Assembly: GCA_964234715.1 (NCBI GenBank)
Contig: OZ174280.1
DNA from: Podarcis melisellensis
Lineage: Eukaryota
DNA length: 64,000 nucleotides
Direction: 5' to 3' (one strand)
Shown: positions 7,261-64,000 of the stretch, one piece after another
How positions within the stretch are numbered: the stretch's first letter is position 1
Layout of the letters: every line of letters starts with the position of its first letter
Program-made: the position numbers and the translations under genes
Notes under the pieces: generated by a model
The model's input: only the letters and a program-made list of their open reading frames with translations
Database searches by the model: none
Told to the model about the DNA's origin: nothing

Positions 7261-8094
7261 TGCCAGTTTATTGTTTAGTAAGAGTTATCTGAATCAATCA
7301 AAAGAGCCCATATTCACAACCACATCCTGAATTGGAGCTGTACCCTGCATTTTAGGCAACATCCCTACCTGTGATGAGAAGTAAAGACAGTCTCATGAGA
7401 GATTCCTGTTCAGAGCTCCATGTGCACTGAGCTTTAACATGTGAATTTAAACACTTCGCCCTTGACCTGCATCTGCAAAATGGGCTGGGGGAGGATCCAT
7501 TCACAGTGCTACCAAGCTTAGTAGTACTTACTCTAAACTAAGTGTATATGTTATACACATGGTATAGGACTGACCCCTACTACAACACAGGCAGATAATT
7601 TATTTCATCTAGGATAAATTCAAAATAGTCCTCCTACATTTATTCTTCTTTCAGATATGTTTTGCACCACCTATTTTCTGAAGTGTGGTTACCAGAACTA
7701 TATCCAACGTCCAGTCTTAGACACTTGAAAAGTAAGGTGTTAATATATGATGAACCAAAGCCTTCTCAGAAAATTTGGCTTGATAAGAAGCATTACGCAA
7801 ATAGTTGTTGGAAAAAAGCATTTTTATTGCACAGTCATATTTAGATGCTTAGGTCAATTTTAAAAGTTATGTCTAGATTCATCATCTATTGTAACATAAT
7901 ATTTTTTTAAACTCATATTGACTGGCCATGTAAATTATTAATTCATCACCATGGAACATAGCAGAAAAGGAAATAGTTCATATTCAACCATATTTTATGC
8001 AAAAAATTCTAATAGATATAATTAACACAATGTGTTCATACCAATGACTTGAAAAGTTGTAAAAATGCAACTGTATGTCAACCCCTGTATGTTG

Positions 8095-8793
8095 AACCCC
8101 TACATTTCCCACCCCGACCTGGCCACAGTGATCCATGCGACAGTCACCTCCAGGCTTGACTACTGTAATTCGCTCTACGTGGGGCTGCCCTTGAAGCTGT
8201 CCCAGAAACTCTAGTGGGTGCAGAATGCAGCAGCGAGGCTCCTCACAGGGTCTCTGCCATGGGAGCATATTCATCCAGTGCTTTCCCAGCTGCACTGGCT
8301 CCCGGTGGAGTACAGGGTCAGATTTAAGGTGCTTTGACCTTTAAAGCCCTTCAAGGCCTAGGACCCTCGTACCTACGGGACCGCCTCTCCCGGTATGCCC
8401 CACGGAGAGCCTCATGGTCCATAAATAGCAACACCCTAGTGGTCCTGGGCCCTAAGGAAGTTAGATTGGCTTCAACCAGAGCCAGGGCCTTTTCAACTCT
8501 GGCTCCGGTCTGGTGGAACGCTCTGCCTCATGAGACCAGGGCCCTGCAGGATCTGATTTCTTTCCGCAGGGTCTGTAAGACAGAGTTGTTCCGCCTCGCC
8601 TTTGGCTTGGAGCCAATTTGATTCCCTCCCCCTCTTTCTTTTTTCTTTTTCCTTTCTCCTCCTGCGATGAGGCTGCATTTTAATATTTTAATGTTTCAAT
8701 ATTTTAATTGTTGTATTTTAATCTTGTTTTTATTATTGCCCTGAGCCCGGCCTTGGCAGGGGAGGGCAGGGTATAAATAAAAAATATTATTAC
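8095..8793 (+). mobile_element. 5'-truncated L2 LINE (ORF2 C-terminus and 3' UTR), inactivated
   Basis: Encodes ...DLATVIHATVTSRLDYCNSLYVGLPL... and TFKALQGLGPSYLRDRLSRYAPRR...KTELFRLAFG, highly similar to the 62-64 kb ORF. Has an in-frame TAG and a frameshift, and ends in GCCCTGAGCCCGGCCTTGGCAGGGGAGGGC...AATAAA. Confidence 0.95.
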
Positions 8794-9822
8794 TCCCCTG
8801 CAATTATTGTTTCCTATGATCAGAGTTCTATTTATGTCAATGCACTATTATTCAAGAAAATGGGGTTATCTATTGTAACTGGCCTCTATAATTCTCAGAT
8901 AAGAAAAAGAATATGGAGTGAACAATTGTAGACAAGCTGAACTGTAGACTTTTTGTTCTGTTAAAGATGCTTTTCTAGCTTTGATTGCTCCTAAACAAAC
9001 AATTTAATTTAATGAATAAAGATGTGTGCAAAAGGAATAGTTTCTAAAGGGGGATGCTTCACATTCCTTTTAGATGATGTATGCTCTAGTATTCCCTAAG
9101 AGTGAATGGAATAATGAGCTTATACTCTCTTTAGACAGAATGCAGAAAGAACCTATTCCAGCTCATCCAGGTTCCAGAGTGGATTTCTGAAATCTATTCA
9201 GGATGCTGGAATCTCCTCCAAGCATAACATGTTTCTTTGTCAGCCATTCAGTGCATTGGAGGATCCAGAGCAGATGTAGGGATATCTAGCCTATCATAGC
9301 TCCTCTGGGCCAAATTAGGCATACTGTATTCTTCACCCATGCCCCAAAAACACCAGGGACTCCCAAACATGGGAAGAATGCAGGGAAGCCAAGCTGGTGT
9401 CTTCCAATTGTAATTGGACTCCAACTCCCATCAGCCCCAGTCAGCATGGCCAATGGTCAGGGATGGTGATGATTAACTGATTTACATGCCAGAATGGTCT
9501 CTAAGTGAGCTATTAGGAGTAATGGTACAACAAGCTATAGAGGGAGGACACAACACTGGCTACTGGTTGGGACATGGCTCAGAATGGCCTTGGTTGTTCT
9601 GTCCTCTGGCTAGGATGGCCCTGAAAAGATATTGGTGGTTTCCCCAACCCCCGGGGAAAGTAGCCTCATCCTTCTTAGAGTTTTCTTCCATGCATTCTGA
9701 GTTCTGAGTCATGACACCAAGCATCCACATCTCATACCGAACACAAAAACTATACTTTCCGACATACTTTGCGTGCTTGCCCAGGCCTTCTGCTGACAGG
9801 GCTCATGAGGTGAATCCCACCA

Positions 9823-10082
9823 AGTGTGGTGTAGTGGTTAAGAGCGGTGGACTCGTAATCTGGTGAACCGGGTTTGCTTCCCTGCTCCTCCACATGCAGC
9901 TGCTGGGTGACCTTGGGCCATTCACACTTCTCTGAAGTGTCTCACTCACCTCACAAAGTGTTTGTTGTGGGGGAGGAAGGGAAAAGGAGATTGTTAGTCG
10001 CTTTGAGACAACTTAGGGTAGTGATAAAGCGGGGTATCAAATTCATACTCCTCCTCATCTTCTTCTTCTTCTTCTCTTCTTC
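9823..10082 (+). mobile_element. Squam3-like CORE-SINE (MIR/Ther1-derived)
   Basis: tRNA head GTGTGGTGTAGTGGTTAAGAGC, CORE-like GCTGGGTGACCTTGGGC, L2-type 3' end and (CTT)n tail. Confidence 0.92.
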
Positions 10083-17944: not shown

Positions 17945-18193
17945 AGAAGAAGAAGAGGAAGAGTTTGGATTTGATATCCCGCCTTTCACCCCCTTCAGGA
18001 GTCTCAAAGCGGCTAACAATCTCCTTTCCCTTCCTCCCCCACAGCAAACACTCTGTGAGGTGAGTGGGGCTGAGAGACTTCAAAGAAGTGTGACTAGCCC
18101 AAGGTCACCCAGCAGCTGCATGTGGAGGAGCGGAGACGGGAACCCAGTTCCCCAGATTACAAGACTACCGCTCTCAACCACTACACCACACCA
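17945..18193 (-). mobile_element. Squam3-like CORE-SINE
   Basis: Reverse complement of the 9823 family, with the tail appearing as (AGA)n on the + strand. Confidence 0.92.
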
Positions 18194-23888: not shown

Positions 23889-24799
23889 TTCATATACACA
23901 CAAGCCACCTTCCTCAAGCTCTGTTATGCATCCCATTCAAATGCAAACAGGGCACCTCATGACCAATATCTCCCACTGAGGCAACATCAACCAGGCATTC
24001 TGGACTATGAAATCCAACTGGCAAAGGAATAATTAGCCACAATCAGTAGCTGGAGCAAACTACTTCCAACATCAGCCAGCTCTATATTTGGAGTGGTTTC
24101 TAAGAGATCACACTGTTTTGGGCTTGGAAATGGCTTGAAGTTATCTAGCCTAGCCATTGTTCCAACTGGAGGGTCCATCAAACTCAGATGCTCAAATGTC
24201 TGGCACTTGTATAAAAATATATATAGCCTGTGATCATCCGTTTTAGTGTGGAATCAAAAGAAAGCCAGGGGGGTTAAACTGCATAATTGCCTGAGGTGTT
24301 TGTAGGAAAGGAGCAGGTTAATCAACAATGATGAACCAATGACTCATGTTCATTTCACCTGATTTGATTTTAATTCATTTATTTTAATTATCCCAAAGTT
24401 GCCAGTAGCTAAAAGCCCTTGACAATGATATGACTAAAAAAACCACAATAGTAGCATTATACATGCACAGTATAGTATCTTTTTATATAACCTGCATAAA
24501 AGAAGCAAAAATAAAAAATACAGCTGACCTAGTATAACTAGTCTGAAGGAGCAGCACTAGGTACTGCTCACAGTTTTGCTGGAAAGACATTTTCTGTATA
24601 TTGTTTTCCTGTTAAGAATGACCAGCAAACATGCTTTCAGCTCTGATTGTGGACAGATTTTAAAATCGAGCTGTACTCCTCCCTGCCTCCTTTTCCAAGG
24701 CCAGGACTCTCTATAGTAGTATCCTTATATTTAATTAGTTAATTAAATTCTGGGAGGGTAACCCCACCCAGAACAGGCAGACAGCCAATTAATTAAGGT

Positions 24800-25975
24800 A
24801 TTTATACATTCTAAATTATTTGCATTTCTAAGAGGTGTACACAAATCCACAGAAAATTGAACACTTAAACAAAACAAAACAAAAATTATAGACTGAATAC
24901 TGCCTCAAAATGCCTTCAGGAACAAGAAAGTCCCAGTGGCTGACGTTCCTCAAGGAGAGTGCCTGTCTAATCTCTGTTGAGAAGGTACTCCACAGGCTTT
25001 GGTGCATAACACCGAATGCCCAGCTTCTAGTAGTGATGAACTGTACATCTGAGGCAAGCAGGACCACCAACAGAAAATCCCCCCAATATCTCAGTGATAG
25101 GGCTGAGATACATATAAAGGACCAGGGAGTCCCAGTCCTTGAGATATCCTGGACCCATGTTGTTAAGGGCCTTGTAATTGAATACAATAATCTTGAACCC
25201 AGTAACATAATGGGCAAACAATGAAAGTTAGTCAATCCTCATCAACAGTTTAGCCACAGCATTTTGGTCCAGGTGGAGCTGCTGAGCCAGGCACAAGGGC
25301 AGCCTCCCCACAGAGCTCATTGCAGTCAACAAGTCTTGAGGTGACCAATGCAGGAATCGCCACAACCAAGAACGAGCATAATTGGTGCCCTGGCCAAAGT
25401 TGGTAAAATGCACTCCTAGCCACTGAGGCTGCCTGAGCCTCAAGTGACAAAGATGGATCCAGGAACACCACCAAACTACACACCTGTTGTTGTTTGCGGA
25501 GGGAGGGTAACCCCAACCAGAACAGGCAGACAGCCAATCTCCCAGACACTGGGACTACACACCCACAGTTCTGCTGTCTTCTTGAGTTTTAGGCTCAGTT
25601 TATTAGCCCTCATCCATTCCACAACTGCATCCAGACAATGTCTCATTCTCTCCTGGAGAAACAGGGTTAGGTGTCACCAGGATACCAAGCACACTTCGCC
25701 CCCAAACTCCTCATGACCACTCCCTATGGCTTCATGTAGAAAGACATTGGCTACAGGATTGTGCCTTGCAGCACACTATAGCACAAGGAATGGGAGCTTG
25801 AGACACAAGCCCCCAGTGATATTCTCTTCAGGTAAAACAGTACCCAAAATACCCATCCTACAGAGTCCATCCAGGAGGTATTGAAAGCAGCCAACAGATC
25901 AAGGAGAAGGAGCAGAGACACATCCCCCCTGTCCCACTGTCAATACAGGACATCCATCAAGGTGATGAAGGCTGA
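24800..25975 (-). mobile_element. Old degenerate L2 LINE (RT to 3' end)
   Basis: Fragmented peptides LLLDLLAAF, VFLDPSLSLEAQAASVARSAFYQL, ALVTSRL and YKALNNMGPGYLKD match L2 ORF2, with many frameshifts. Confidence 0.88.
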
Positions 25976-29385: not shown

Positions 29386-30762
29386 AGATATTGAAGTTTT
29401 TCAGGATTTCATGTTTCACAGACTTTTGCAGGCATGAAGATGTCAGTAATTCGGAATGGTCATTTGCAGTGTTTTTCTCCCCCCCCCCAACCTGACATTA
29501 GTTTTTTATGTGTGCAATTCATCACAATAGCAAACACTCTTTGCTTCTGAAATCCGTGGATTCTACATTTGTTTTTACATCTAAAATTACATCTCTCAAC
29601 TGTTCATTATTGCCTCACGTAACTAAATCTTCAGTGTCAAGGAAGTTAACATCACTTCAGCCCAAACATTCACTAGCAATTTTCTTTGAAGGAGGCCGGA
29701 ATTTATTTGGCCTGACCTAATCATTGATCTAAATAGGTTTTCTTTAAACTGCCTGACAAAACAGACTTATTCTTGTTTACTTTGCTCATGCATTGGAGTT
29801 ACATTAATGGCCCAGTCTTCTACTGCACTGGTAAGTGAAGACCACATCACACAATACCTTTTTTGCTGCATAAAGGTTATCCTACATGAAGTCAAGAAAC
29901 CATTCTGTGAAGAACACAAAGTGTCTATGTTCTCAGGCCTTTCTCTAGAGGTAGTAAGGGTAAGCATTGGAACAAGTGCCCACCCAATGGACCACTGTCC
30001 AGCAGTGATATGCTCTTCAATTTGCATGGAGTATACAAGAAAGCGTGGTGTATTTCTCAGTTCATTGCTCCAAAAGACTACCTTCTCCAAGCCTTCCAAA
30101 GCCTGGGGTCTGCACTGTAGTTTGCCACTCAGCATGTTGGTAACATGCTGTGTATATTGGCTTTTAAAGATCTGTGTCCTCTCCAGTTGCAACACAACAA
30201 CACTTGCATGATAATGTACACAATTTTTAATAAGCAAAACGTTGTGGATGATATGGCAGTTGCCACAACTACTAACCCAATGTGGTCAAATTCCATCCCC
30301 CATCCCCCAACTTGCAGAATATTAAAGCGGGGAAGATGGGAGAAGTTATTTAAATGGTGCAATGTGCAAAACAAAGCAAGTTGTGGTTTGAGGATATAGG
30401 TTTGTGCATCTGTTTCAGTCATGTATGTGTGCAAATAAGCAGCCGGGGTTGCTTGTGGACTGTAGCCTAAGACTGCCCATTCAGTATTACTGTATGGGTA
30501 TGAGGAACTGTGAAATTGATGGTTTAAAATACCCTAAATGATATCTATAGATGGCAGTAGTACTTAATCTCATTTGAGGCTGAAGAGACATGTCTGCTCT
30601 TTCAAGGAAAAGTGTGTTGATTTGAAGAATTTGTGTTAAAATATGGACAGAATTATCTTAATTCAATTTTACTTGAGGGTTCTCTACCCTTAGCAAAGGA
30701 GTCATGTGCTGAGCTCAAGACTCTATGGAGGAAATGGGATCCTCCTAAATTGAGGGTCCTGA

Positions 30763-31509
30763 TTGTGCTCAGACCCCTTAAGCCACCCCCACGGGGTGAG
30801 CTGTTACTAGGCATGGCACAAACTTTGTCAGTTGGGCCGTGGGATCATGCCTGGCTGTTTGGGCCAATTGGGGCAGGTGGCATGATCCTGGGGTCCTATA
30901 AATGCTGCAACGTGATGTAGGTGGAGTACTTGCTTTGCGCTGCCGAACACCCGCCCTCCCCCCCTAATTTGGTGCTACTAATTGCCCTTGGTTTGGATTG
31001 GGTTGCCTGCTTTGGAGCTGGGTAGGAATTTTTCCATTTGGCAAATTGGCTTTGGCCACTTGGTTTTCACCTACCCCCTTAGCAATCGTAACAACTTTGT
31101 AAGGTTTGGCAGTTAGGCATTGGTTTATAGAAATGTCCGGGAGGGGAGGTGTGGCCATCACCTGCCCCTCCAAAAATAGGGCATTCTGGTAAAGGAATCT
31201 GGGGGTCCTAGATCTCATCTGAAGTCCGCTTGAGAGGCTAGGGCCATGCCAGGATCACAGGAACCCTGGGGTGAGCTTCAATCGATCTTCACCGATGTTG
31301 CTCCCTCATTTGGTGTTTACCCTTTCAGACTGCCAGCCGGAGAGGCAGGAGTCAGTTATAGTGCCTGACCAATGCCTAGGCCAATACCACTCAATTTGTT
31401 TTGTAATCAATAAAGTTGTGGCCAAAATTTTGCCCGAAAACTTAAACTAAAATTATGTGTCCATTTGAATTTGTTTACTGGGTAAGGGCTTGGGGGCCTA
31501 AGGGTGCAA
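30763..31509 (+). mobile_element. Solo LTR-like terminal repeat (probably Ngaro/DIRS group or LTR retroelement)
   Basis: CCAAT (30863), TATAAA (30897), CACCCGCCCTCCC tract and AATAAAGTTGTGGCC (31409). Ends are imperfect inverted repeats TTGTG...TGCAA with no TSD. Related to 36100-36748. Confidence 0.65.
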
Positions 31510-34500
31510 AAGTTATATTCATGTCAAGAAGAAATGGCACACGACCAGCTGCTTGCTGATTTCAAATGAGAAAAAAGAGTTAGTGTAGATACTTCACATA
31601 GGGCTTAGCTCTTCCAGGTCATGAAACAGAACACAAGGCAGGAACGGGAGGCATTTTTGCCTTTTTGCAAAGGACGTGTTGCACAAGTGCGATGCAGAAA
31701 TAATATTGTTGCTTAACTTTTTGGAGGGGGCAGGATTGCATCCCAACTTCTTTTAAAAAAAATCTCAAACAAGCAAATAAAACATAAAGCAAACATTACA
31801 AACCCTGAGTTCTCCTGAATGGTTTTCAGTCCAAGCATCTGAAGTGCTCAGCTCTTTCCTGCATCCAATGGATATGATTTAACTCATATTGGCTCTAAAG
31901 AAACAAACCTATTTCTGCAAACTCAGGAAATAGCCTATTCTGAGCCAATTCAATGTGAGCTGGAGTGTGTGGGTGTGTTTGCAAATTAGTAATTATTATT
32001 TAAATGTTGGAGGCAACCAGAAACATTGGAGCTATAGAATTAATTTTAAAGTAATCCATTTTATGGATTCCAATTCAGCTAATCAAGAGACAACCTTTCT
32101 AGCAGATAAAGAGAATAAACAAGAAACCTTAAGTTAGCCACCTTTGATCTGTGTTCACCGCAGAGGTCCAGAACTGCTACATCCCACTGTGACACTGAAT
32201 GCAGAAATACGTATGCAAAGATATCCTTTATTAACAGAATAGTACATTAAGGTCTGTCCAGAATGAGCTGAAGCACTTAAATGTACATTCCAAATGGTAT
32301 TTTATTACTAGGGGGAAATCTTTTTTCCTGAAGATCACCCATTCAAATTCAGGTGACTACCTATACAACATCACCGTCATAATTAGTACCCTCATTGTCA
32401 GTCTCCTGTTAAGAGGCCATGGATTAATGGGTACAGAGGACCAACTACACTGCCATTGCTAGATAATAAAATGCTGAAAGATATTCATAGGGCCACATCA
32501 GAAAATTTGCCCCTTAAGCCAATGGTACAATGCTTGCCTTTACTGATAGAGATGTTCATTTTTGTGGTGTGTCAATTTAATTTGGTGTATTTTAAGGAAG
32601 TTTAAAATCAGTTAAATTTAAATTCAACTGCCCTTATGAATCCGGCTCCCAGTGTTGTATAGAGCAATATATGTTTTTATTTTATTCATGGTAAAAGCAT
32701 CTTAGGAAAGGTTTTTCTGAAGACATTGTCCTTCTCATGGAAGGAGAAGTGGCTCAGCAAGGCAAATTTATATCCTGCTCTCCTGGTGCAAAAATACCAC
32801 ACAGAGTGGCTGCCAAGGTTTAAAATGAGAAATTTACAAAACATTATTAAACAGTCAGCCTAGGAGATATGGTCAGCAAGCACAACCGAGCATTAAAACT
32901 CATTGGGATAAAATGTGCATTACTCCAGTTCTGAGACACACATTTAACATTTTTTTCTTCCCCTTTGAATTGCTCTGCTCAGGTAGTATTGAAATGTGAC
33001 AGAACACAACCTGGCCCTGTTTTGCCAAGTTCTCCAAGCTATACTAGTTATACTTCACATGTTCTGTAGATAACAATAACCAGGGCTTTTTTCCAGCCAG
33101 AATTTACCAGAACTCAGTTCTGGTATCTCTCACCATTGACATTCTATAAGAATGAGGGACATGTTCACGGTGAGTTCCAATACCACCGACAATAACACTG
33201 AATTTCCTTCTTTCAAAGTCCCTTAAATAAGATGAAATTGTTAGCCTGATAGAAGTCTATCCCACTATCCAGTATGAAACCACCAACAAATAATAAATAT
33301 TGTTATTTGGCACTATCTTAATGAACAGAGAGGAAAAGTGCTAAAGGAAACTTTGCTTGAAGTTGCCATTATATTTTTCCTCAGGCACTCAAATAGCTGT
33401 GTCAACTAATGAGGATGCTAAAATGGTGCTGTGGTTATTTCAACAAGACAAGAAGGCTCTTAAAAGAGTCCCAGAAGACAATGGTCGTTCTTTGATGTGC
33501 AATAGGTCAGAATTGACAGAGCTTTTGTCTCTAAGCTTTTTATAATAATGAGGTGGAAATTCATGAATCCCCCCCTTGCTATTTAGCTGAGGAAACAGAC
33601 CTTTGCTTCATTTCCTGACTGTGCACCTTTGATTACCACCGAGATTTGTTTCTTACTTTGCACTCTAGTGAATTTAATTATCAGTTGTTGCCAAATTTAT
33701 ATTATGAATCTGACCATTAAAAATTCCTCTTAACATAGTGCTGAGCACTTAATGGCACTTAAAGAACCAAATGAAACTGCATTACATGGAGGCACTAATC
33801 AGAAGGCTAGAAAAGCCCCAATCAGCTGGAGTAGTTAGATTCATTTAATGGCATATATGATTTAATTTTAAAACAGCTAAATTGAAATATTGCTGAGGAT
33901 GTTGCAACAAATCAAAGGCAGACTAGGGAAATAAAAGTTGTGGTTTGCAGCTTAAATTTGTGGCTTCAGTTTAGTCACCGTGTTTCTGGAGGGAAACCCA
34001 AAAGAGTGGACTGGAGCCAGAGAATTCTGCTCACAAAATATTGCCGTAAAAGTGGGGGGTGATTTTTACCAATCGCTTCTTACCAAATCTGCTCTAGGGG
34101 ATTGCAGAACAGGTCTTGTGCAAAGAGTGGGCAGCAGGGGCATTGGGGAACCTGTGAAAACTGCTGCTCTCTTCTTCTACACCCTACCAGCATGAGCCTT
34201 CAACGCAGCTCAGTTCCTTCTCTGAGCACAGGATCAAATCTAGAAATGAAATGGCAAGTCTAAATGTAAGCTACCTGTCTGTTGATTATACTTCAATATA
34301 TGGATCTAAGAATATTCTTGATATAAGCTAATGAATACCCCAAATATATCTAGAGATGTTACAGTGGAAACTGATTATACATTTATAATCAGTGTAGACT
34401 GATTATCTATTTCAAGCAGCATCTTTAAAACATATATGAAGACTGAAAGTAAGTGATGATGTGGGTGAAATATTCAGTTGGCATCTGGTTGGCCACTGTG

Positions 34501-36099: not shown

Positions 36100-36748
36100 T
36101 ATCAATATCCCCAGCTCCCAGGTATCATAAGGAAGGAATAAAGACTCTGACAACGTTACATGGAATTAAAATTAGGCCACAACTTTATTAAACTTCCTGG
36201 GGGAACTGGGGCTCATCAGAGTAAATGAGATATGGGGGTGCTCTGTGAGACGTAAGTGTAACAGGCAGGCAAGCCCATATCCCTGCACAAGGGGGACCCT
36301 GGAATCGCCACCGCAGGGGGGGGGGTGAGTCACCACTACACACACACACACACAGAAGAAAAGACTCAAGGATTCCACCCAAGGCCATAACCGCCAAAGT
36401 TGAGACGAATTGCTACAGGGAAGACAAAACCTGCCAATGCAGGAAAATTTCTTCCTGGTCCTTCAACAGCAGCCAGTCAAGACCATAGCAGCGCCCGCTA
36501 AACAGGAAGAAAAAGTTAACCTGCAAACAAGAAACATTAAACAACGGGAGGGTGAATCTCTAGAGCTGACTGCCTGGCTATTGTCGGCTCTAACCCCTAT
36601 TTATAAATGGGGCTGGCCCCACCTCCCAGCAAGAAACTTGATTCCTGAGGCTGGGTGTGAACCTCCAAAAATGAACACTGAGAGGCAAGCCAGCCCCTGT
36701 TTGCCAGTAAGCTCCCTGGGAACTGTAGCACCACGCACAATCCCGCAA
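36100..36748 (-). mobile_element. Solo LTR-like terminal repeat, diverged relative of 30763-31509
   Basis: Minus strand has TATAAAT (about 36600), the core TAGCAATTCGTCTCAACTTTGGCGGTTATGGCCTTGG (cf. TAGCAATCGTAACAACTT...TTTGGCAGTTAGGCATTGG) and AATAAAGTTGTGGCC (36175-36189). Confidence 0.65.
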
Positions 36749-37326
36749 AGGGCACCCACAATGTAAAGTGTGAGTGCTCATTAATAAAAACAGACAAGTG
36801 CATGTTCCAATTCCAGAATTTTTTTAATGTCCTGGTCATATTGGAATTTGGAAGGAATGCAGCCCCTTCCATTTGCATGTTGGTTAGCTGAAGTCTTGGT
36901 AAATGCAGAAGAGTGAAGAGGGCTAAAAGCCACATGTTTCAAAATAACCTAGCAGATCTTTGGCTGCTGGTTGCAAGCGTCCCCACAGCATTCTCTTTAA
37001 AATTCTTCTTGAACATACGATGTGTGTTTCAATTACAATACCTCATTACAGCATCCAGCTTACATCTCAAAGCGTCCAATTTTTCAATTAAGCCCTTGCA
37101 TGCAAAATGACCTTCATGCTACTCTCTCACAAAGTGTCTGGCCACAAACAGGCATGAGTGGCAAGCTGAAACTAGACCAACTCCAAGCCAACTCCCAGTC
37201 CAATTATAAAGGCAGACAGAGGGGGGGGAGGGAAGCGAGAGGGGATATGGGGGAATATTGTAAGGAATAGCTGTTGCATGCAGAAATGATGACATGACCT
37301 CAGGAAACTAAATGGGGGCATTTGCC

Positions 37327-47285: not shown

Positions 47286-47640
47286 CAGGGTGACCAGATG
47301 CAAAAGAAAAGAAGAGGAGGAGGAGTTTGGATTTGATATCCTGCTTTATCACTACCCTAAGGAGTCTCAAAGTGGCTAACAATCTCCTTTCCCTTCCTCC
47401 CCCACAACAAACACTCTGTGAGGTGAGTGAGGCTGAGAGACTTCAGAGAAGTGTGACTAGCCCAAGGTCACCCAGCAGCTGCATGTGGAGGAGCAGGGAA
47501 TCGAATCCGGTTCACCAGATTACAAGTCCACTGCTCTTAACCACTACACCACTACACCACACTGGCTCTCCTGCCAGTGTCACTCTGGCCCCTTTTTTAG
47601 CTATGTAGAACAAAGTCCCCTTCCACATCTGGTCACACTA
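47286..47640. mobile_element. hAT-Blackjack-like MITE interrupted by a Squam3-like SINE
   Basis: TIRs CAGGGTGACCAGATG and CATCTGGTCACACTA (13/15) bracket the SINE. Confidence 0.65.
47310..47570 (-). mobile_element. Squam3-like CORE-SINE
   Basis: Full-length reverse copy with an 8-bp duplication (CCACTACA x2) in the head. Confidence 0.92.
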
Positions 47641-55070: not shown

Positions 55071-55395
55071 AGAAGAAGAAGAAGAAGAAGAAGAAGAAGA
55101 AGAAGAAGAAGAAGAAGAAGAAGAAGAAGAAGAAGAGTAGTAGTAGTAGTAGTAGTAGTTTGGATTTGATATCCTGCTTTATCACTACCCGAAGGAGTCT
55201 CAAAGCAGCTAACATTCTCCTTTCCCTTCCTCCCCCACAACAAACACTCTGTGAGGTGAGTGGGGCTGAGAGACTTTGAAGAAGTGTGACTGGCCCAAGG
55301 TCACCCAGCAGCTGCATGTGGAGGAGCGGAGACGTGAACCCGGTTCCCCAGATTACGAGACTACCGCTCTTAACCACTACACCACACTGGCTCTC
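55071..55395 (-). mobile_element. Squam3-like CORE-SINE, young, with an expanded (CTA)n(CTT)n tail
   Basis: Full head GGAGAGCCAGTGTGGTGTAGTGG, several CpGs intact, and a compound trinucleotide tail at 55071-55158. Confidence 0.95.
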
Positions 55396-57543: not shown

Positions 57544-58184
57544 CCTCCCCATCACTGCCATAAAGCCACCAGAAGGGAATGTGGTCCTCTGGAAAATGTT
57601 CCCCAGCCCTGATCTTCAGGCATTTGATCACTTGTTTTGCAATGTTAATTAATTATACTACTATTGTATATTATCTTACTGCTTGTTTTGCAAATCAGAA
57701 GGCAGAGCTCCTGAATAAGTGGAAGCGGTGGGTGTGATAGGCATGTCATACTCATATGAGAAATCCTATGGCTTCACTGTTATCAAAATTTGATAGACTA
57801 CAGTGAGGGTTGATGAGATCCTGAAGCATTTGTCTTTTAACTTTCCCATTTCTGTGGTCTTGAGCACTGTTAGTAGGCAACACTATTATCAAATGACAAT
57901 GTTTGCAGAGATATCCAGTTTAATTCACAGAATGGTAGCACAGCCTGAACGCCTTACTCTTTTAAAGGCAAATCATATACAGAACCTTCCAATTTCACAC
58001 TAAATGATGAGATAGTATTTGAACAGAGATTTAAGGTGGAGCAGAAAAGTACTTACACTCACAGATACACAAAGCACTTGCATCAATACCTTGCCTTGCA
58101 TTCCTTTCCAAAGGCCCGTATGATCAACTCAATGGGCCTGTTTTCACGAACACAGGAAGCAATGCTAAAAGAAAGTGCCTCTGG

Positions 58185-58625
58185 ACACAGGCAGGGTGCT
58201 TCCCCCCTCTATTCTGTCTTGGTAAGACCCCACCTGGCATACTGTATCCAGTTCTGGGCACCACAGTTTAAGAAGGTTACAGACAAGCTGGAACATTTGC
58301 AGAGGAGGAGCAAAGGTTGAGGGAGTTGGGTATGTTTAGCCTGGAGAAGAGAGGACTGAGAAGTGAGATAGTGGTTATCTTCAAATATCTAAAAGGTTGT
58401 CACATGGAAGATGGAGCAAGCTTGTTTCCATTGCTCTGGTGGATATGACCTGAACTAATGGATCCAAATTACAAGAAAGGAGATTCCTACTAAACATCAG
58501 GAAGAACTGTCTAACAGTAAGAGCTGTTGGACAGTAGAACAAACTACCTTGGAAGGTGGTGGTCTCTCCTTCCTTAGAGGTTTTTAAAAAGAGGTTAGAT
58601 GGCCATCTGTCAGAGAGTCTTTAAC
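58185..58625 (+). mobile_element. CR1 LINE 3' fragment
   Basis: [35 protein letters not shown] and ELGMFSLEKRGLR are the CR1 ORF2 C-terminal signature. Confidence 0.93.
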
Positions 58626-59710
58626 TCTCTTGACTGTACCACACTCACTCCCCTGAGACAGGATAAGGAAGCTGTGCTTAGCGGTGGAACGATGCGCCTC
58701 TGTTTGCTTTTGAGGAAAAGGTTGTTGAGGAGATATTATAGGAGGGCAAAACTCTAAAGCTGTTTGGAATTGATAGGTAATGAATGGCTTCTCTTGGTAC
58801 CATTTTTATAGGGGCAAATGAGAGTGATTCTGTCTTCTGAAGTATTACCTCTCCCAGTTCTGTCTCATCTGCAGATTTAATGAGCAGCCCCTCTACGTGC
58901 CAAAGTCATTTTTTTGCCATGTTTTGGGACCTTCTACCAGGCTTCACTGCTAAGAATACCACCAATGAGCTTTCCCCTTCCCATCTGGTGGTCAGAAGGG
59001 GGGTCTGCACTGATGGAGTGATGCAACTGTCACTTCATTGCTGATGGTTCTTGCAAGGCTAGTTGAACTGGCAGATGCCATCTATACTCAATACAATATC
59101 CCCACAGTCTGGCATAAGAAGGGGGTTGGATTGTAGCCTAAAGTAGCTCAGGCAGAGGACCACAAATTGTGGCTCACATAGCTATCAACCATCCTTTTAC
59201 ACTAATACAGTTTGACCCCGATATTGCATAAATATATTTATTTTTCAACACAGTTACTGAAATGGATGACATCAGGCTTTGTGTAAGTTGATGAACACAT
59301 TTATAGAAAATAAATGCCATATAGCTAGGTTTCTGGCTGACTTTTAGTCGTGTCCCCTGCTGCCCATTTGAACCATTAGGTCACCCAGATTCTCGACTTT
59401 CATTGAGGAAAAGAAAGAGCAAGTCAAGCTCTTATAGAACCAGAGATGCAAGGCAAAAAAACAATGACCAGGCAGTTTTTTGGCCCACTCAATTTCTGAT
59501 AAGCCACCCTGTTCCTATTGTCCTTTGCTCTTAGCCAATCTAACAAGACAACCCATTATTATTAGGATCACCATGCAATATATTATAATGAACAAAACAT
59601 GACACCATATTCATAAAATCTCAACTCTTCTGTGCACATTGTTCATGATGTCAGGAGTGCCTTTTGAATGAATGCACAGTAAACTATCACGGCCCTCAGT
59701 CATTGCATAT

Positions 59711-59843: not shown

Positions 59844-61943
59844 TGATACTCGGCATATGTCATGTTGGGAAACGTCTCTTGGGTGTTAGGGTGTGCCTCT
59901 GTGCTCAGATCCCCAGCACCTAAGGCTCAGTGCACTGAATCAGCAATAATGAGTGAAACTATTGGAACTCATTAAGAACTTCCTAATCAGTCTGTTAATT
60001 GAGGCTATCAGCTTCCCATTATACCGAGACAAATTAAGCAGGTTAAAATGGTTCTCAAAAAACATCTGCTGAAGCAAGTCAAAATTAATGATAAATAAAA
60101 TTGAGTTCCCTTTGTGGTTGGTTTCCCCACCCCACCCCATCTGCACCTATAAAAATGCTATCAAGAGAAATCATTCGTTACCTGTCAGTTCCAAAAAGCC
60201 TTAGAGTTTTGCCCTCCTAAAATATCCCCTCAATAACCTATCTGTCAATGGCAAACACAAGTGTGTTGTTCGACCACTAAGCACAGCTTCTTCTTCCTGC
60301 CTCAAGGGAACCAGTGTGGTGCGGTCAACAGAGATGGGTTTGAATTCCTGCTCACAGTCACAATGCACTTTGCCCAGCCATTTTCTCTAAACCCCACCTA
60401 TCTCATAGGGATAGCCCCACCTCTACCCCATGTGCCACCCTAATCATACATTTGAAAGGGAACGGCAGGCGTAGCTAATTCAGTCACAATTTTCTTTCCC
60501 AATAGTGAGAAAGTGAATTTATTATTTCCAGTTATTATTTCCATGTATCAACTGCTTACTATTTGAAAAATTTCAAAATGGTTTACAATAGATAAATACA
60601 TAAGGAGAGGGAGAATCAAAGAGCACTGAAGGGCAAAATAATATAAAACGTTGATATACATTCCGTCACTCACTACCCATTTCACCCACCCAACATTCAC
60701 TACCTTAAATATTACGTCTACCAACCACTCATACATAAGCCACTCAACAAAGGGCCACTGCCACACATGAACATATATGATACTTTCCTAATCTCTGAAG
60801 GACTAATGAACTCATGCCCCACACCCATTGAATTACATAATGCTCCTCCCCCATTTCTCACCTGAAAGGAGACCATACCAGGATCTTACCCTGGAGGGAA
60901 TAGAACTACTTTCATCTGCTAACTTCCAACTATATAATCATAACATGCATAATAAATGAACCATGAACAATTAGCACTGGTAGAAATGAACCCTAAGACT
61001 AATTAAGGGAGCCTATGAAGTGCCTCACACTGAGGTGCGTTGTTTTCTGTAGTCCAAACTGAATCTAGTTGTCAGTGCACACCCTAAATCCAACCCATAT
61101 TGTCACTGATAAATGGAAATGGTATTTGGCTTTCTTTCTTTTTTATAGAAAAGGTGTGGCATTTTTCATCTGGGATGTGACTCCACAGAATTTCTTGAAT
61201 ATCATGTGCTGTATTAGATGGAATAAAATCATAAATTGATATTTTGAAGAGAGAGAAGCTTCTTCATAAATGCCCAATTGTGACTGAGCTTCCTGTAAGT
61301 GGATTTCATTCTCAGTCAGCTTCGAACAGCAAAATGCCTGACAGAATTCTGCAGATGTTTCAACCATCTTGAGATAACCAGCATGGCCATTGCTGTTGAG
61401 ACTGTATCAAGCAACAGGTACATTGGGTTTTTCACCAGCTCACCAGTAGCAGGCAGATTTCTTTTCTGAAATAAATGTTTTGAAGGGAGGAATCCCACCC
61501 ACCCCTTCCTCTCAAATTAGATGTACAGAGCAAACAGGAGCAATCTTCTTCTTCAACTGCTCTCATCCATGCCATAGCACTGATGTGGAAATTACAAGAA
61601 CAAAATGTACTATATCAACTGGGAAGATTTCCAGATTCATTTTGAAGCGAGATAAGTTCAGCGCAGCATGGCTGAACAACATACCTCTCTGTCACTTTGC
61701 CACCAGCCTCACCAGATGGAGCATGGAGGACACTTGGTTTGCTGGATGGTGTGCAGGTGAGATAATAATGATTTTCTGCCCACAGCCAACTATCATCAGC
61801 TTTCTAGGTAAATGAGAGAGTGTCGCTGACACTGATAGACATGTCATGGTGGAGCTGTTTCCCTCTTTAGAACTGCTGCAGATTGTTTTGCCTGCATTAT
61901 CTCGTTGATGACAAATGGCCCAGAGAATTTGGCTGCTCCACAG

Positions 61944-64000
61944 AATAATAATAATAATAATAATAAATTTTATTTATATCCCGCCCTCCCCAGCCGAAGC
62001 CGGGCTCAGGGCGGCTAACAACACCAAAATAGTGCGACATTATAAAAACATTATAAAAATTAATTAAAATCAAGATTGATGGCAGCCATAAAGTTTTGTA
62101 AAGGTTGCCAGAGGAGGGAGTCAGGCTGCGCCCTAACCAAAGGCCTGGCGGAACAGCTCTGTCTTGCAGGCCCTACGGAAGGATGTCAAGTCCTGCAGGG
62201 CCCTTGTCTCTTGTGACAGAGCATTCCACCAGGTTGGAGCCGCAGCCGAAAAGGCCCTGGCTCTAGTTGAGGCCAGCCTAACCTCTCTGTGGCCTGGGAC
62301 CTTCAAGGTGTTTTTGTTTGAAGACCGTAGGTTCCTCTGTGGGGCATACCACGAGAGGCGGTCCCGTAGGTACGAGGGTCCTAGGCCGTATAGGGCTTTG
62401 AAGGTTAAAACCAGCACCTTAAACCTGATCCTGTACTCCACCGGGAGCCAGTGCAGCTGGTATAGCACTGGATGAATGTGATCTCGCAGCGAAGACCCCG
62501 TAAGGAGTCTCGCTGCGGCATTCTGCACCCGCTGGAGTTTTTGGGTCAGTCTCAAGGGCAGCCCCACGTAGAGCGAGTTACAATAATCCAGTCTGGAGGT
62601 GACCGTCGCGTGGATCACAGTAGCTAGGTCAGGGCGAGAGAGGTAAGGAGCCAACTGCTTAGCTTGGCGGAGATGAAAAAATGCCGCCTTTGTAATAGCT
62701 GCAATCTGCGCCTCCATGGAGAGGGAGGTATCGAAGATTACACCCAAACTCTTAACGGACGGTGCTGGCACTAATTGCACCCCCGCAAGAGATGGGAGCT
62801 GCCCCCTCAGTCCCATATCATCCCGTCCCAGCCAGAGGACCTCTGTCTTCGAAGGATTTAACTTCAACCGGCTCCCACGCAACCATCCAGCCACAGCTTC
62901 CAAGCATCTGATCAGTGTGTCTGGGGCCGAGTCAGGATGGCCATCCATCAACAGATAGAGTTGGGTGTCATCAGCATACTGATGGCAGCCCAGCCCAAAA
63001 CTCCTGACAAGCTGGGCGAGGGGGCGCATAAAGATGTTAAAAAGCATCGGGGAGAGAATCGCACCCTGAGGCACTCCACACACCAAGGAGTGGCACGATG
63101 ACAATTCCCCCCCAAGCGCCACCCTCTGTCCCCGACCAGAGAGAAACGAGCGCAGCCATTGAAGGACTGTGCCCTGGATCCCCACGTCGGCAAGGCGGTG
63201 GTCCAGAAGTTCATGATCGACCATGTCAAAAGCTGCTGACAAATCTAGAAGAATCAGCAGCCCCGACCCGCCTCGATCCAGCTGTCTACGAAGATCATCT
63301 GTTAGGGCAACCAGAGCCGTCTCGGTCCCATGGCCAGCGCGGAAGCCGGACTGGAATGGATCCAGAGCCAATGTTTCATCCAGAAACCCACCAAGCTGTT
63401 CAGCAACCGCTCTCTCAATCACCTTACCCAGGAACGGAAGATTCGAAACCGGGCGGTAATTGGATAGATCTAAAGGATCTAATGATGTTTTCTTTAAGAG
63501 CGGGCGCACCACTGCCTCCTTCAGTTCCCCTGGGAATGTCCCCGTGCCAAGGGACAAATTGATGATATCCCCCAGGAGGGCCCGCACCTCGTCTGGACAC
63601 GCTCTAATCAGCCAAGACGGGCACGGGTCAAGAGGACAGGTGGTGGGCTTTCCAGCTCGGAGGAGTCTGTCCACATCGGCTGGGGATATCCGGTCGAAGT
63701 GGTCCAATACTGGACCCGAGGACAGTCGAGGGGCCTCCAATTCCTTTATTGTATCCAAATTGGCAGGGAGGTCATGGCGGAGCGACAAGACCTTCTCCGC
63801 AAAAAAGCTCGCAAATGCCTCACAGCTGTGTGTCAATTTGTTATTTAAATTTGGCTGTCCTTCGAGGGACGTTAAAGACCGAATTATACTAAATAATTGC
63901 GCCGGGCGAGAGCTAGCGGATGCAATGGAGGCCGAGAAGTAGGACTTCTTAGTGGCCTTCACAGCCATCTCGTAGGTTTTCATAAAAACCCTATAAGATG
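61944..64000 (-). mobile_element. Young L2 LINE, 3' 2 kb; continues beyond the window
   Basis: Intact RT ORF, about 190-nt 3' UTR with a terminal stem-loop, AATAAA and an (ATT)n tail. GC- and CpG-rich relative to the flank. Confidence 0.97.
62133..64000 (-). CDS. L2 ORF2 reverse transcriptase (partial; frame stays open past the window edge)
   Basis: More than 616 aa without a stop. RT motifs NYRPVSNLPFLGKVIE, DPFQSGFR, LLDLSAAFD, GVPQGAILSP, YADDTQLY and LKLNPSKTE, then L2 C-terminal LHWLPVEYRIRFK. Confidence 0.96.
   Translation of the reverse strand, partial: SYRVFMKTYEMAVKATKKSYFSASIASASSRPAQLFSIIRSLTSLEGQPNLNNKLTHSCEAFASFFAEKVLSLRHDLPANLDTIKELEAPRLSSGPVLDHFDRISPADVDRLLRAGKPTTCPLDPCPSWLIRACPDEVRALLGDIINLSLGTGTFPGELKEAVVRPLLKKTSLDPLDLSNYRPVSNLPFLGKVIERAVAEQLGGFLDETLALDPFQSGFRAGHGTETALVALTDDLRRQLDRGGSGLLILLDLSAAFDMVDHELLDHRLADVGIQGTVLQWLRSFLSGRGQRVALGGELSSCHSLVCGVPQGAILSPMLFNIFMRPLAQLVRSFGLGCHQYADDTQLYLLMDGHPDSAPDTLIRCLEAVAGWLRGSRLKLNPSKTEVLWLGRDDMGLRGQLPSLAGVQLVPAPSVKSLGVIFDTSLSMEAQIAAITKAAFFHLRQAKQLAPYLSRPDLATVIHATVTSRLDYCNSLYVGLPLRLTQKLQRVQNAAARLLTGSSLRDHIHPVLYQLHWLPVEYRIRFKVLVLTFKALYGLGPSYLRDRLSWYAPQRNLRSSNKNTLKVPGHREVRLASTRARAFSAAAPTWWNALSQETRALQDLTSFRRACKTELFRQAFG

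Follow-up and report, generated by a model that had tools for sequence, protein, structure and literature searches.

A conserved U-loop stem-loop resembling a poly(A)-clamping ENE in terminal-repeat-like retroelement remnants of the lizard Podarcis melisellensis

The ENE is a stem-loop whose internal loop, rich in U and bordered by G-C pairs, holds the poly(A) tail by means of U.A-U triples, thereby blocking deadenylation (PMC7583470, PMC13541005). ENEs are reported from plant, fungal and slime-mould transposons, stickleback retroviruses are predicted to have them (PMC7583470), and some are described as embedded in both the 5′ and the 3′ LTR (PMC13541005). The ENE of the Arabidopsis element Evade (Copia93) is stated to raise, and to be needed for, RNA stability and transposition (PMC12501189). 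The related loops of MALAT1 and MEN-beta are characterised by G/C interruptions, an encoded A-rich tract and a tRNA-like element, according to the account in PMC7583470. Poly(A)-clamping triple helices have so far been tested in viruses, in plant transposons and in two lncRNAs of mammals. Among vertebrate retroelements, the predicted stickleback case is the only one found in the literature. Given the plant, fungal, slime-mould, LTR-embedded and Evade precedents, an ENE in a retroelement repeat is an already known kind of element. The lizard motif described here had been put forward in an initial annotation as one not known to be described for squamate retroelements. No reptile case was found among the papers listed by the literature searches, an entry in the Tycowski 2016 survey and its supplements being possible, and to this extent the proposal stands; the stickleback prediction (PMC7583470) means that vertebrate retroelement ENEs as such are not new.

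The window is a 64,000-nucleotide stretch of Podarcis melisellensis DNA. It is repeat-rich vertebrate DNA with SINE and LINE fragments, and its GC content is mostly 0.36-0.47 along its length and 0.42 overall. The motif lies within a unit of GC 0.50, termed E1, and a second unit, E2, is found on the other strand (Table 1). The ENE-like layout claimed for E1 is borne out by the sequence, by script location and by the minimum-energy fold, which is the fold described, at -20.9 kcal/mol. The TATAAA and AATAAA signals are likewise in place, the latter 333 nt 3′ of the motif. The outer stem (31020-31026 with 31070-31076) contains seven Watson-Crick pairs and the inner stem (31034-31036 with 31061-31063) contains three. 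The 5′ side of the loop consists of AA (31027-31028) followed by five U (31029-31033), and the 3′ side of four U (31064-31067) followed by CA (31068-31069). Two donor-like splice words are present 3′ of the motif in E1 and none in E2.

Table 1. Features of the two terminal-repeat-like units and their ENE-like motifs
Feature	Position	Strand	Remarks
Unit E1, solo terminal-repeat-like retroelement remnant	30750..31500	+	Ends approximate; recognised by GC, promoter and poly(A) words, relatives elsewhere
CCAAT box, E1	30864..30868	+	From sequence; putative function
TATAAA box, E1	30897..30902	+	From sequence; 123 nt 5′ of ENE-like motif
ENE-like motif, E1	31020..31076	+	7-bp outer stem, internal loop, 3-bp inner stem, apical hairpin
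Conserved block directly 3′ of motif, E1	31080..31109	+	Common to E2 and third copy
AATAAA poly(A) signal, E1	31409..31423	+	In 15-nt word identical in E2; followed by GU-rich stretch
Unit E2, second, diverged solo unit	36108..36762	-	Same part order as E1; ends approximate
TATAAA box, E2	36600..36605	-	150 nt 5′ of E2 motif
ENE-like motif, E2	36419..36455	-	6-bp outer stem, AA+U4 / U4+G loop, 5-bp inner stem, 4-nt loop
Conserved block 3′ of motif, E2	36384..36415	-	From alignment with E1
AATAAA poly(A) signal word, E2	36175..36189	-	230 nt 3′ of E2 motif

All folding figures are predictions from an energy model that cannot score triples. As a plain hairpin, the E1 motif is modestly stable (z = -2.22), with 5 of 200 shuffles folding equally well. 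In all eight simulated full-length RNAs, its stem pairs have probabilities of at least 0.92 and its U tracts are unpaired at a probability of at least 0.93. The corresponding values for E2 in whole predicted RNAs are at least 0.76 and at least 0.90. It had been cautioned that the 5′ AA could pair with opposing U residues and shrink the loop. This closure costs +3.0 kcal/mol in E1 and +2.2 kcal/mol in E2 under the energy model, which together with the unpaired U tracts of E1 speaks against the caveat. Because the stems consist of Watson-Crick pairs throughout, the fold of the opposite strand is nearly as stable (-20.3 kcal/mol for E1, -13.3 kcal/mol for E2), and no G-U pair identifies the strand.

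The rarity of the layout was assessed with a strict descriptor, comprising an outer stem of at least 6 bp, at least four U, an inner stem of at least 3 bp and at least four U, applied to both strands of the window. There are two matches, E1 and E2; 100 block shuffles average 0.12 matches, and none of them reaches two. With the outer stem reduced to at least 5 bp the same two matches are returned, and two are reached in 9 of 100 shuffles. Shuffling of the TATA-to-AATAAA stretch alone yields a match in 3 of 5000 trials for E1 and 5 of 5000 for E2; for E1 the figure is optimistic, as the descriptor was composed after its motif had been seen. Relaxation of the U tracts to three residues gives 14 matches, of which only E1 and E2 sit between an upstream TATAAA and a downstream AATAAA. 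No Rfam family matches the window at its gathering score, nor the interval 30700-31560 at E<=10.

Unit E2 was flagged first by BLAST, independently of structure. The search of E1 against the window returned one notable match at the poly(A) signal (20 of 22 nt; 36189-36168, minus strand; E = 0.013), 230 nt away from the motif. Nine stem pairs can be aligned between the two motifs and all nine are kept: six are identical, three are changed on both sides and none is broken. A neutral-substitution simulation yields nine kept pairs with three two-sided changes in 32-58 of 200,000 trials, depending on which of three rates is assumed. RNAalifold recovers both stems from E1 and E2 unprompted. Its count of two-sided changes (7 of 18) is overstated by an inner stem one column off register, and 3 of 9 is the figure used here. 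The apparent covariation is that of two DNA copies, too small a number for a covariation statistic.

The U tracts and the adjoining C-G pairs are invariant between E1 and E2, and the apical part shortens from 24 to 8 nt. Above the loop there are two C-G pairs in both motifs. Below it, E1 has two G-C pairs and E2 an A-U followed by a G-C pair. Both have a run of purines ahead of the 5′ U tract. The apical part of each contains ATTGGC, a reversed CCAAT box (31045-31050, plus strand; 36438-36433, minus strand), and a third copy, described below, is compatible with it. The letters UGCU before and AGCA after the motif could lengthen the lower helix (31007-31013 with 31080-31084, plus strand; 36472-36467 with 36415-36411, minus strand). 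As these letters are invariant in E1 and E2 the additional pairing carries no covariation evidence, and it is not picked by RNAalifold.

Outside the motif, the similarity of the two units is confined to short segments. The alignment score of the block downstream of the motif is above that of all 5138 background windows, and the poly(A) word is equalled by 10 of 2312. The remainder is at background, with equal scores in 95 of 3730 windows for the 5′ end, 1998 of 2228 for the TATA region and 761 of 1466 for the middle. Likeness over whole units is not significant: an alignment with lax gaps is matched by 64 of 200 shuffles, and nhmmer gives E values of 0.19-2.4. A further nhmmer match at about 62722-62825 falls in a LINE reverse-transcriptase frame and was dismissed as chance. 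The downstream block forms no part of the descriptor and exceeds every background window, and the two motifs are therefore homologous. E1 and E2 are distantly related, with signal surviving in the motif region and the poly(A) word alone. Survival of these parts alone is what selection on an RNA element would leave.

Additional copies were sought in protein sets with the antisense junk frame of E1 that crosses the motif. The exhaustive search returned two matches, P0001 and P0002. P0001 aligns over 31248-30994 with 44% identity (E 9e-15) and is the translation of a third copy. Its codon-forced differences affect 5 of 33 positions in the core, 4 of 24 in the apical part, 5 of 29 in the block 3′ of the motif and 22 of 58 in the flanking sequence. 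Over 31080..31109, the antisense frame has six of six residues identical. Its codons would allow an intact 5′ U tract and intact CC/GG pairs. As read from the antisense translation only, one outer-stem pair cannot form and a purine lies inside the 3′ U tract. These defects may reflect decay of an old copy, or may be a sign that the U tract is not strictly kept. P0001 is mixed evidence: the region is preferentially kept, yet the copy has two defects. The stem covariation and U-tract conservation looked for across copies are seen between E1 and E2, with all nine pairs and both tracts kept, but not fully in P0001, with its broken pair and interrupted tract. P0002 was set aside, as its 27% identity over seven stretches looked compositional.

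A profile search adds P0003, a Podarcis muralis model of TMEM207, which contains an antisense copy over 31245-31108 that ends short of the ENE-like motif. Its residues 116-164, approximately the last 50, are an antisense reading of the E1 repeat family; the last exon of the model is therefore suspect, and is probably repeat-derived or mis-predicted. The window contains no TMEM207 exons, so this copy belongs to another locus. The copies in P0001 and P0003 make the E1 element a dispersed (interspersed) lacertid repeat. Protein searches by word index, each with one junk frame of E1 or E2, gave no match, and a search of the ESM Atlas gave no usable match. Six pattern matches in bacterial and archaeal genomes were attributed to chance, none of them having the motif or the poly(A) word.

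The conserved features of integrase-type LTRs include a TATA box, AATAAA, a GT-rich tail and TG...CA ends, as outlined in PMC3601003. The TATA box, AATAAA and GT-rich downstream stretch are present in E1 and E2. TG...CA ends with a flanking duplication were not found for either unit, the best end pairs having 5-6 of 7 positions and a duplication of 0-1 nt. Several duplications of 5-7 nt lie near the ends, as chance predicts for the ranges searched, and none is accompanied by TG...CA. This argues against a young integrase-type LTR and is compatible with a Ngaro-like origin. Either the ends have been erased by age, or the parent was a tyrosine-recombinase element such as Ngaro. In Ngaro-like elements, split direct repeats are arranged as A1 ... 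B1 A2 B2 around gag, RT/RH, YR and SGNH frames, as set out in a preprint (bioRxiv 2021.08.05.455354). The label 'LTR-like' given in the initial annotation is thus sound for the TATA box, AATAAA and GU-rich tail, but not for the ends; the '750-bp element' is found as a unit, with limits that are only approximate. By analogy, a solo unit could remain from split repeats of this kind.

The Pfam scan covered 142 of the 809 frames of at least 40 aa, namely all 106 at 29.5-38 kb and 36 others. No coding remnant was detected in any of the 106, and the sole frame among the 142 to pass a curated cut-off was RVT_1 at 62136-63998. As the 29.5-38 kb interval holds no coding remnant, E1 and E2 are regarded as solo units. 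Their CpG observed/expected ratio is 0.28-0.29, against 0.21 for the window and 0.63 for the young LINE; this depletion near window level marks them as old, methylated insertions. The best reading of both is a retroelement terminal repeat, with an LTR, ERV or Ngaro-like parent as candidates. E1 had also been described as a self-contained unit. The CCAAT box, TATA box, motif and AATAAA do lie in one unit, but no special system need be invoked: CCAAT/TATA ... AATAAA with a GU-rich tail is ordinary terminal-repeat anatomy as given in PMC3601003, and a solo remnant is the simplest account of E1. Its motif most likely arose in the service of the parent element's RNA.

Several other repeats occur in the window. 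An uninterrupted frame of 621 aa at 62136-63998 (minus strand; RVT_1, E 1.8e-35) is the 3′ part of a young LINE that runs off the window end, and which we take to be L2-like. An older inverted copy of it is located at about 8091-8792. A 38-nt direct repeat (24752-24789 and 25501-25538, 749 nt apart, 97% identical) lies around a decayed LINE-like stretch. A SINE-like repeat of about 240 nt is present in four copies (17952-18189, 47315-47552 and 55148-55385 on the plus strand; 9819-10064 on the minus strand), two of which match the relaxed descriptor with 3-U tracts, without TATA/AATAAA context. An inverted repeat of 196 nt (58625-58820 and 60138-60333, 80% complementary, 1317 nt apart) spans an assembly gap and is possibly a DNA-transposon remnant.

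Sequence, predicted fold, motif homology, compensatory stems and repeat nature together give good support for a conserved U-loop RNA structure with compensated stems in a retroelement repeat of lacertids. The favoured and moderately likely reading is that E1 and E2 are solo terminal repeats of one lacertid retroelement lineage and that the motif is a single-domain ENE of the PAN type, modelled as clamping a poly(A) tail. The two units would descend from diverged subfamilies of this lineage, each terminal repeat carrying the U-loop stem-loop between its TATA box and poly(A) signal. Transcription of E1 would begin near 30922-30927, judging from the usual TATA spacing. In the parent RNA, or in a short RNA of the solo unit, 230-330 nt would separate the loop from the downstream poly(A) site at which transcripts would end. 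The added tail would fold back into the loop and form about four U.A-U triples, and this triple helix would slow deadenylation of the intronless RNA; such stabilisation might in turn benefit transposition. The partner of the clamp would be the added tail, as in PAN and unlike MALAT1, since E2 lacks a downstream A run and no tRNA gene is present. By analogy, two diverged remnants sharing a clamp-shaped motif suggest that reptile retroelements may use poly(A) clamping in the manner of plant and viral elements.

The main competitor accepts the fold as real and selected, but as a protein-binding or replication signal, active in packaging, export or reverse-transcriptase recognition, instead of a poly(A) clamp. 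The 30-nt downstream block, the ATTGGC of the apical part and the 5′ AA are conserved alongside the U loop, and a bare ENE needs none of them; it is this wider conservation that places the signal reading ahead of the other alternatives. The interrupted U tract of P0001 points the same way, and long R regions of LTRs are said in PMC3601003 to keep stem-loops generally. A signal of this kind is nevertheless rather unlikely: facing U tracts bordered by invariant C-G pairs are kept in both DNA copies through a threefold change in apical stem length, and the placement on the sense strand ahead of a poly(A) signal fits an ENE. Conservation might alternatively act on the DNA, through a promoter or enhancer word (ATTGG, the reversed CCAAT) or through a single-stranded DNA hairpin serving replication or integration. 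The presence of ATTGG in both apical parts (31045 and 36438), the all-Watson-Crick stems and the nearly equal fold of the opposite strand would suit such a role, which is judged highly improbable because a double-stranded factor site leaves the compensatory stem changes unexplained and a DNA hairpin does not account for facing U tracts on the strand of the TATA box and poly(A) signal.

Each unit of 650-750 bp could also be a stand-alone small RNA gene or non-autonomous element, with the RNA of about 500 nt as the functional product. All signals do fall within one unit with no coding remnant attached, and short tyrosine-recombinase elements made of terminal A and B repeats only are described (SIRE, PMC6681497). 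The same layout is however shown by any solo terminal repeat, and CpG depletion marks E1 and E2 as old, methylated insertions, so that this is a very unlikely account. A chance arrangement in a U-rich repeat is the least credible of all. It would agree with a hairpin z of only -2.2, a post hoc descriptor and whole-unit similarity that is not significant, but a second instance was found independently and has compensatory stems, and local shuffles match in only 3 and 5 of 5000 trials.

The preferred reading, an ENE in a lacertid terminal repeat, may be compared with the LINEs of other tetrapods. In some CR1 LINEs of turtles, crocodilians and frogs, the 3′ UTR may contain a similar order of stem, U tract, inner hairpin, U tract and downstream word; a resemblance to vertebrate CR1 3′ UTRs was also suggested in the initial annotation. 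CR1 RNAs have short tandem repeats at their genomic 3′ ends. A fragment at 58180-58620 (plus strand) resembles what we take to be the end of CR1 ORF2; it stops before any 3′ UTR and contains no ENE-like motif. It is doubtful, though conceivable, that the motif is a widespread vertebrate module common to lizard terminal repeats, possibly Ngaro-like, and the CR1 3′ UTRs of other tetrapods. A short-word search of the supplement to PMC4316615, whose CR1 alignment omits the ORF2/3′ UTR boundary, gave no motif match. Were the module real, its parts would be a clamp formed by the U loop with a bulge of purines on its 5′ side, the ATTGGC of the apical part and the block 3′ of the motif. It would represent an overlooked ENE family of very high copy number that has passed between classes of retroelement, and host transcripts could borrow a promoter, clamp and poly(A) site from its thousands of solo copies. 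Should the resemblance to CR1 be genuine, it would bear on the 3′-end protection of LINE RNAs without a poly(A) tail in the genome.

If true, a conserved ENE in retroelements of reptiles would extend decay evasion to amniote mobile DNA. The E2 motif would then be a compact natural variant of 37 nt with natural compensatory pairs for structure work, and the genomic copies of the repeat would form a rich set for covariation analysis.

Among known repeats, solo Gypsy/ERV LTRs and Ngaro-like A+B repeats share with E1 and E2 the TATA box, AATAAA, GU-rich stretch, lack of coding sequence and dispersed copies; solo Gypsy/ERV LTRs differ in having TG...CA ends with a flanking duplication. Among triple-helix systems, MALAT1 and MEN-beta also have a vertebrate U-rich internal loop, whereas the loops of E1 and E2 are plain U and a poly(A) signal is present. 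There is no run of four or more A 3′ of the E2 motif, and ARAGORN found no tRNA gene; with the plain-U loops, these results led to the rejection of a MALAT1-type 3′ end. The KSHV PAN ENE has, as predicted for E1 and E2, a two-sided U-rich loop between short helices with G-C pairs beside the loop, upstream of the poly(A) signal in an apparently intronless RNA. Five triples are formed in PAN according to PMC7583470, against at most four possible in E1 and E2, which in addition have the 5′ AA, sit in a chromosomal repeat and lack an Rfam match. The double ENE (dENE) of transposons has two U-rich loops with a short duplex between them, an adenosine triad and a 3′-end pocket. The paired loops are absent, as a 2x2 U loop below the outer stem of E1 is not kept in E2; by analogy, and as a guess, the purines that precede the 5′ U tract may contribute to a dENE-like pocket for the tail end. 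Transposon ENEs and dENEs resemble the lizard motif in their proposed role in RNA stability and mobility and in the placement of an ENE-like loop in a retroelement, including inside the terminal repeat; the lizard motif differs from them in its single U-rich domain and squamate host.
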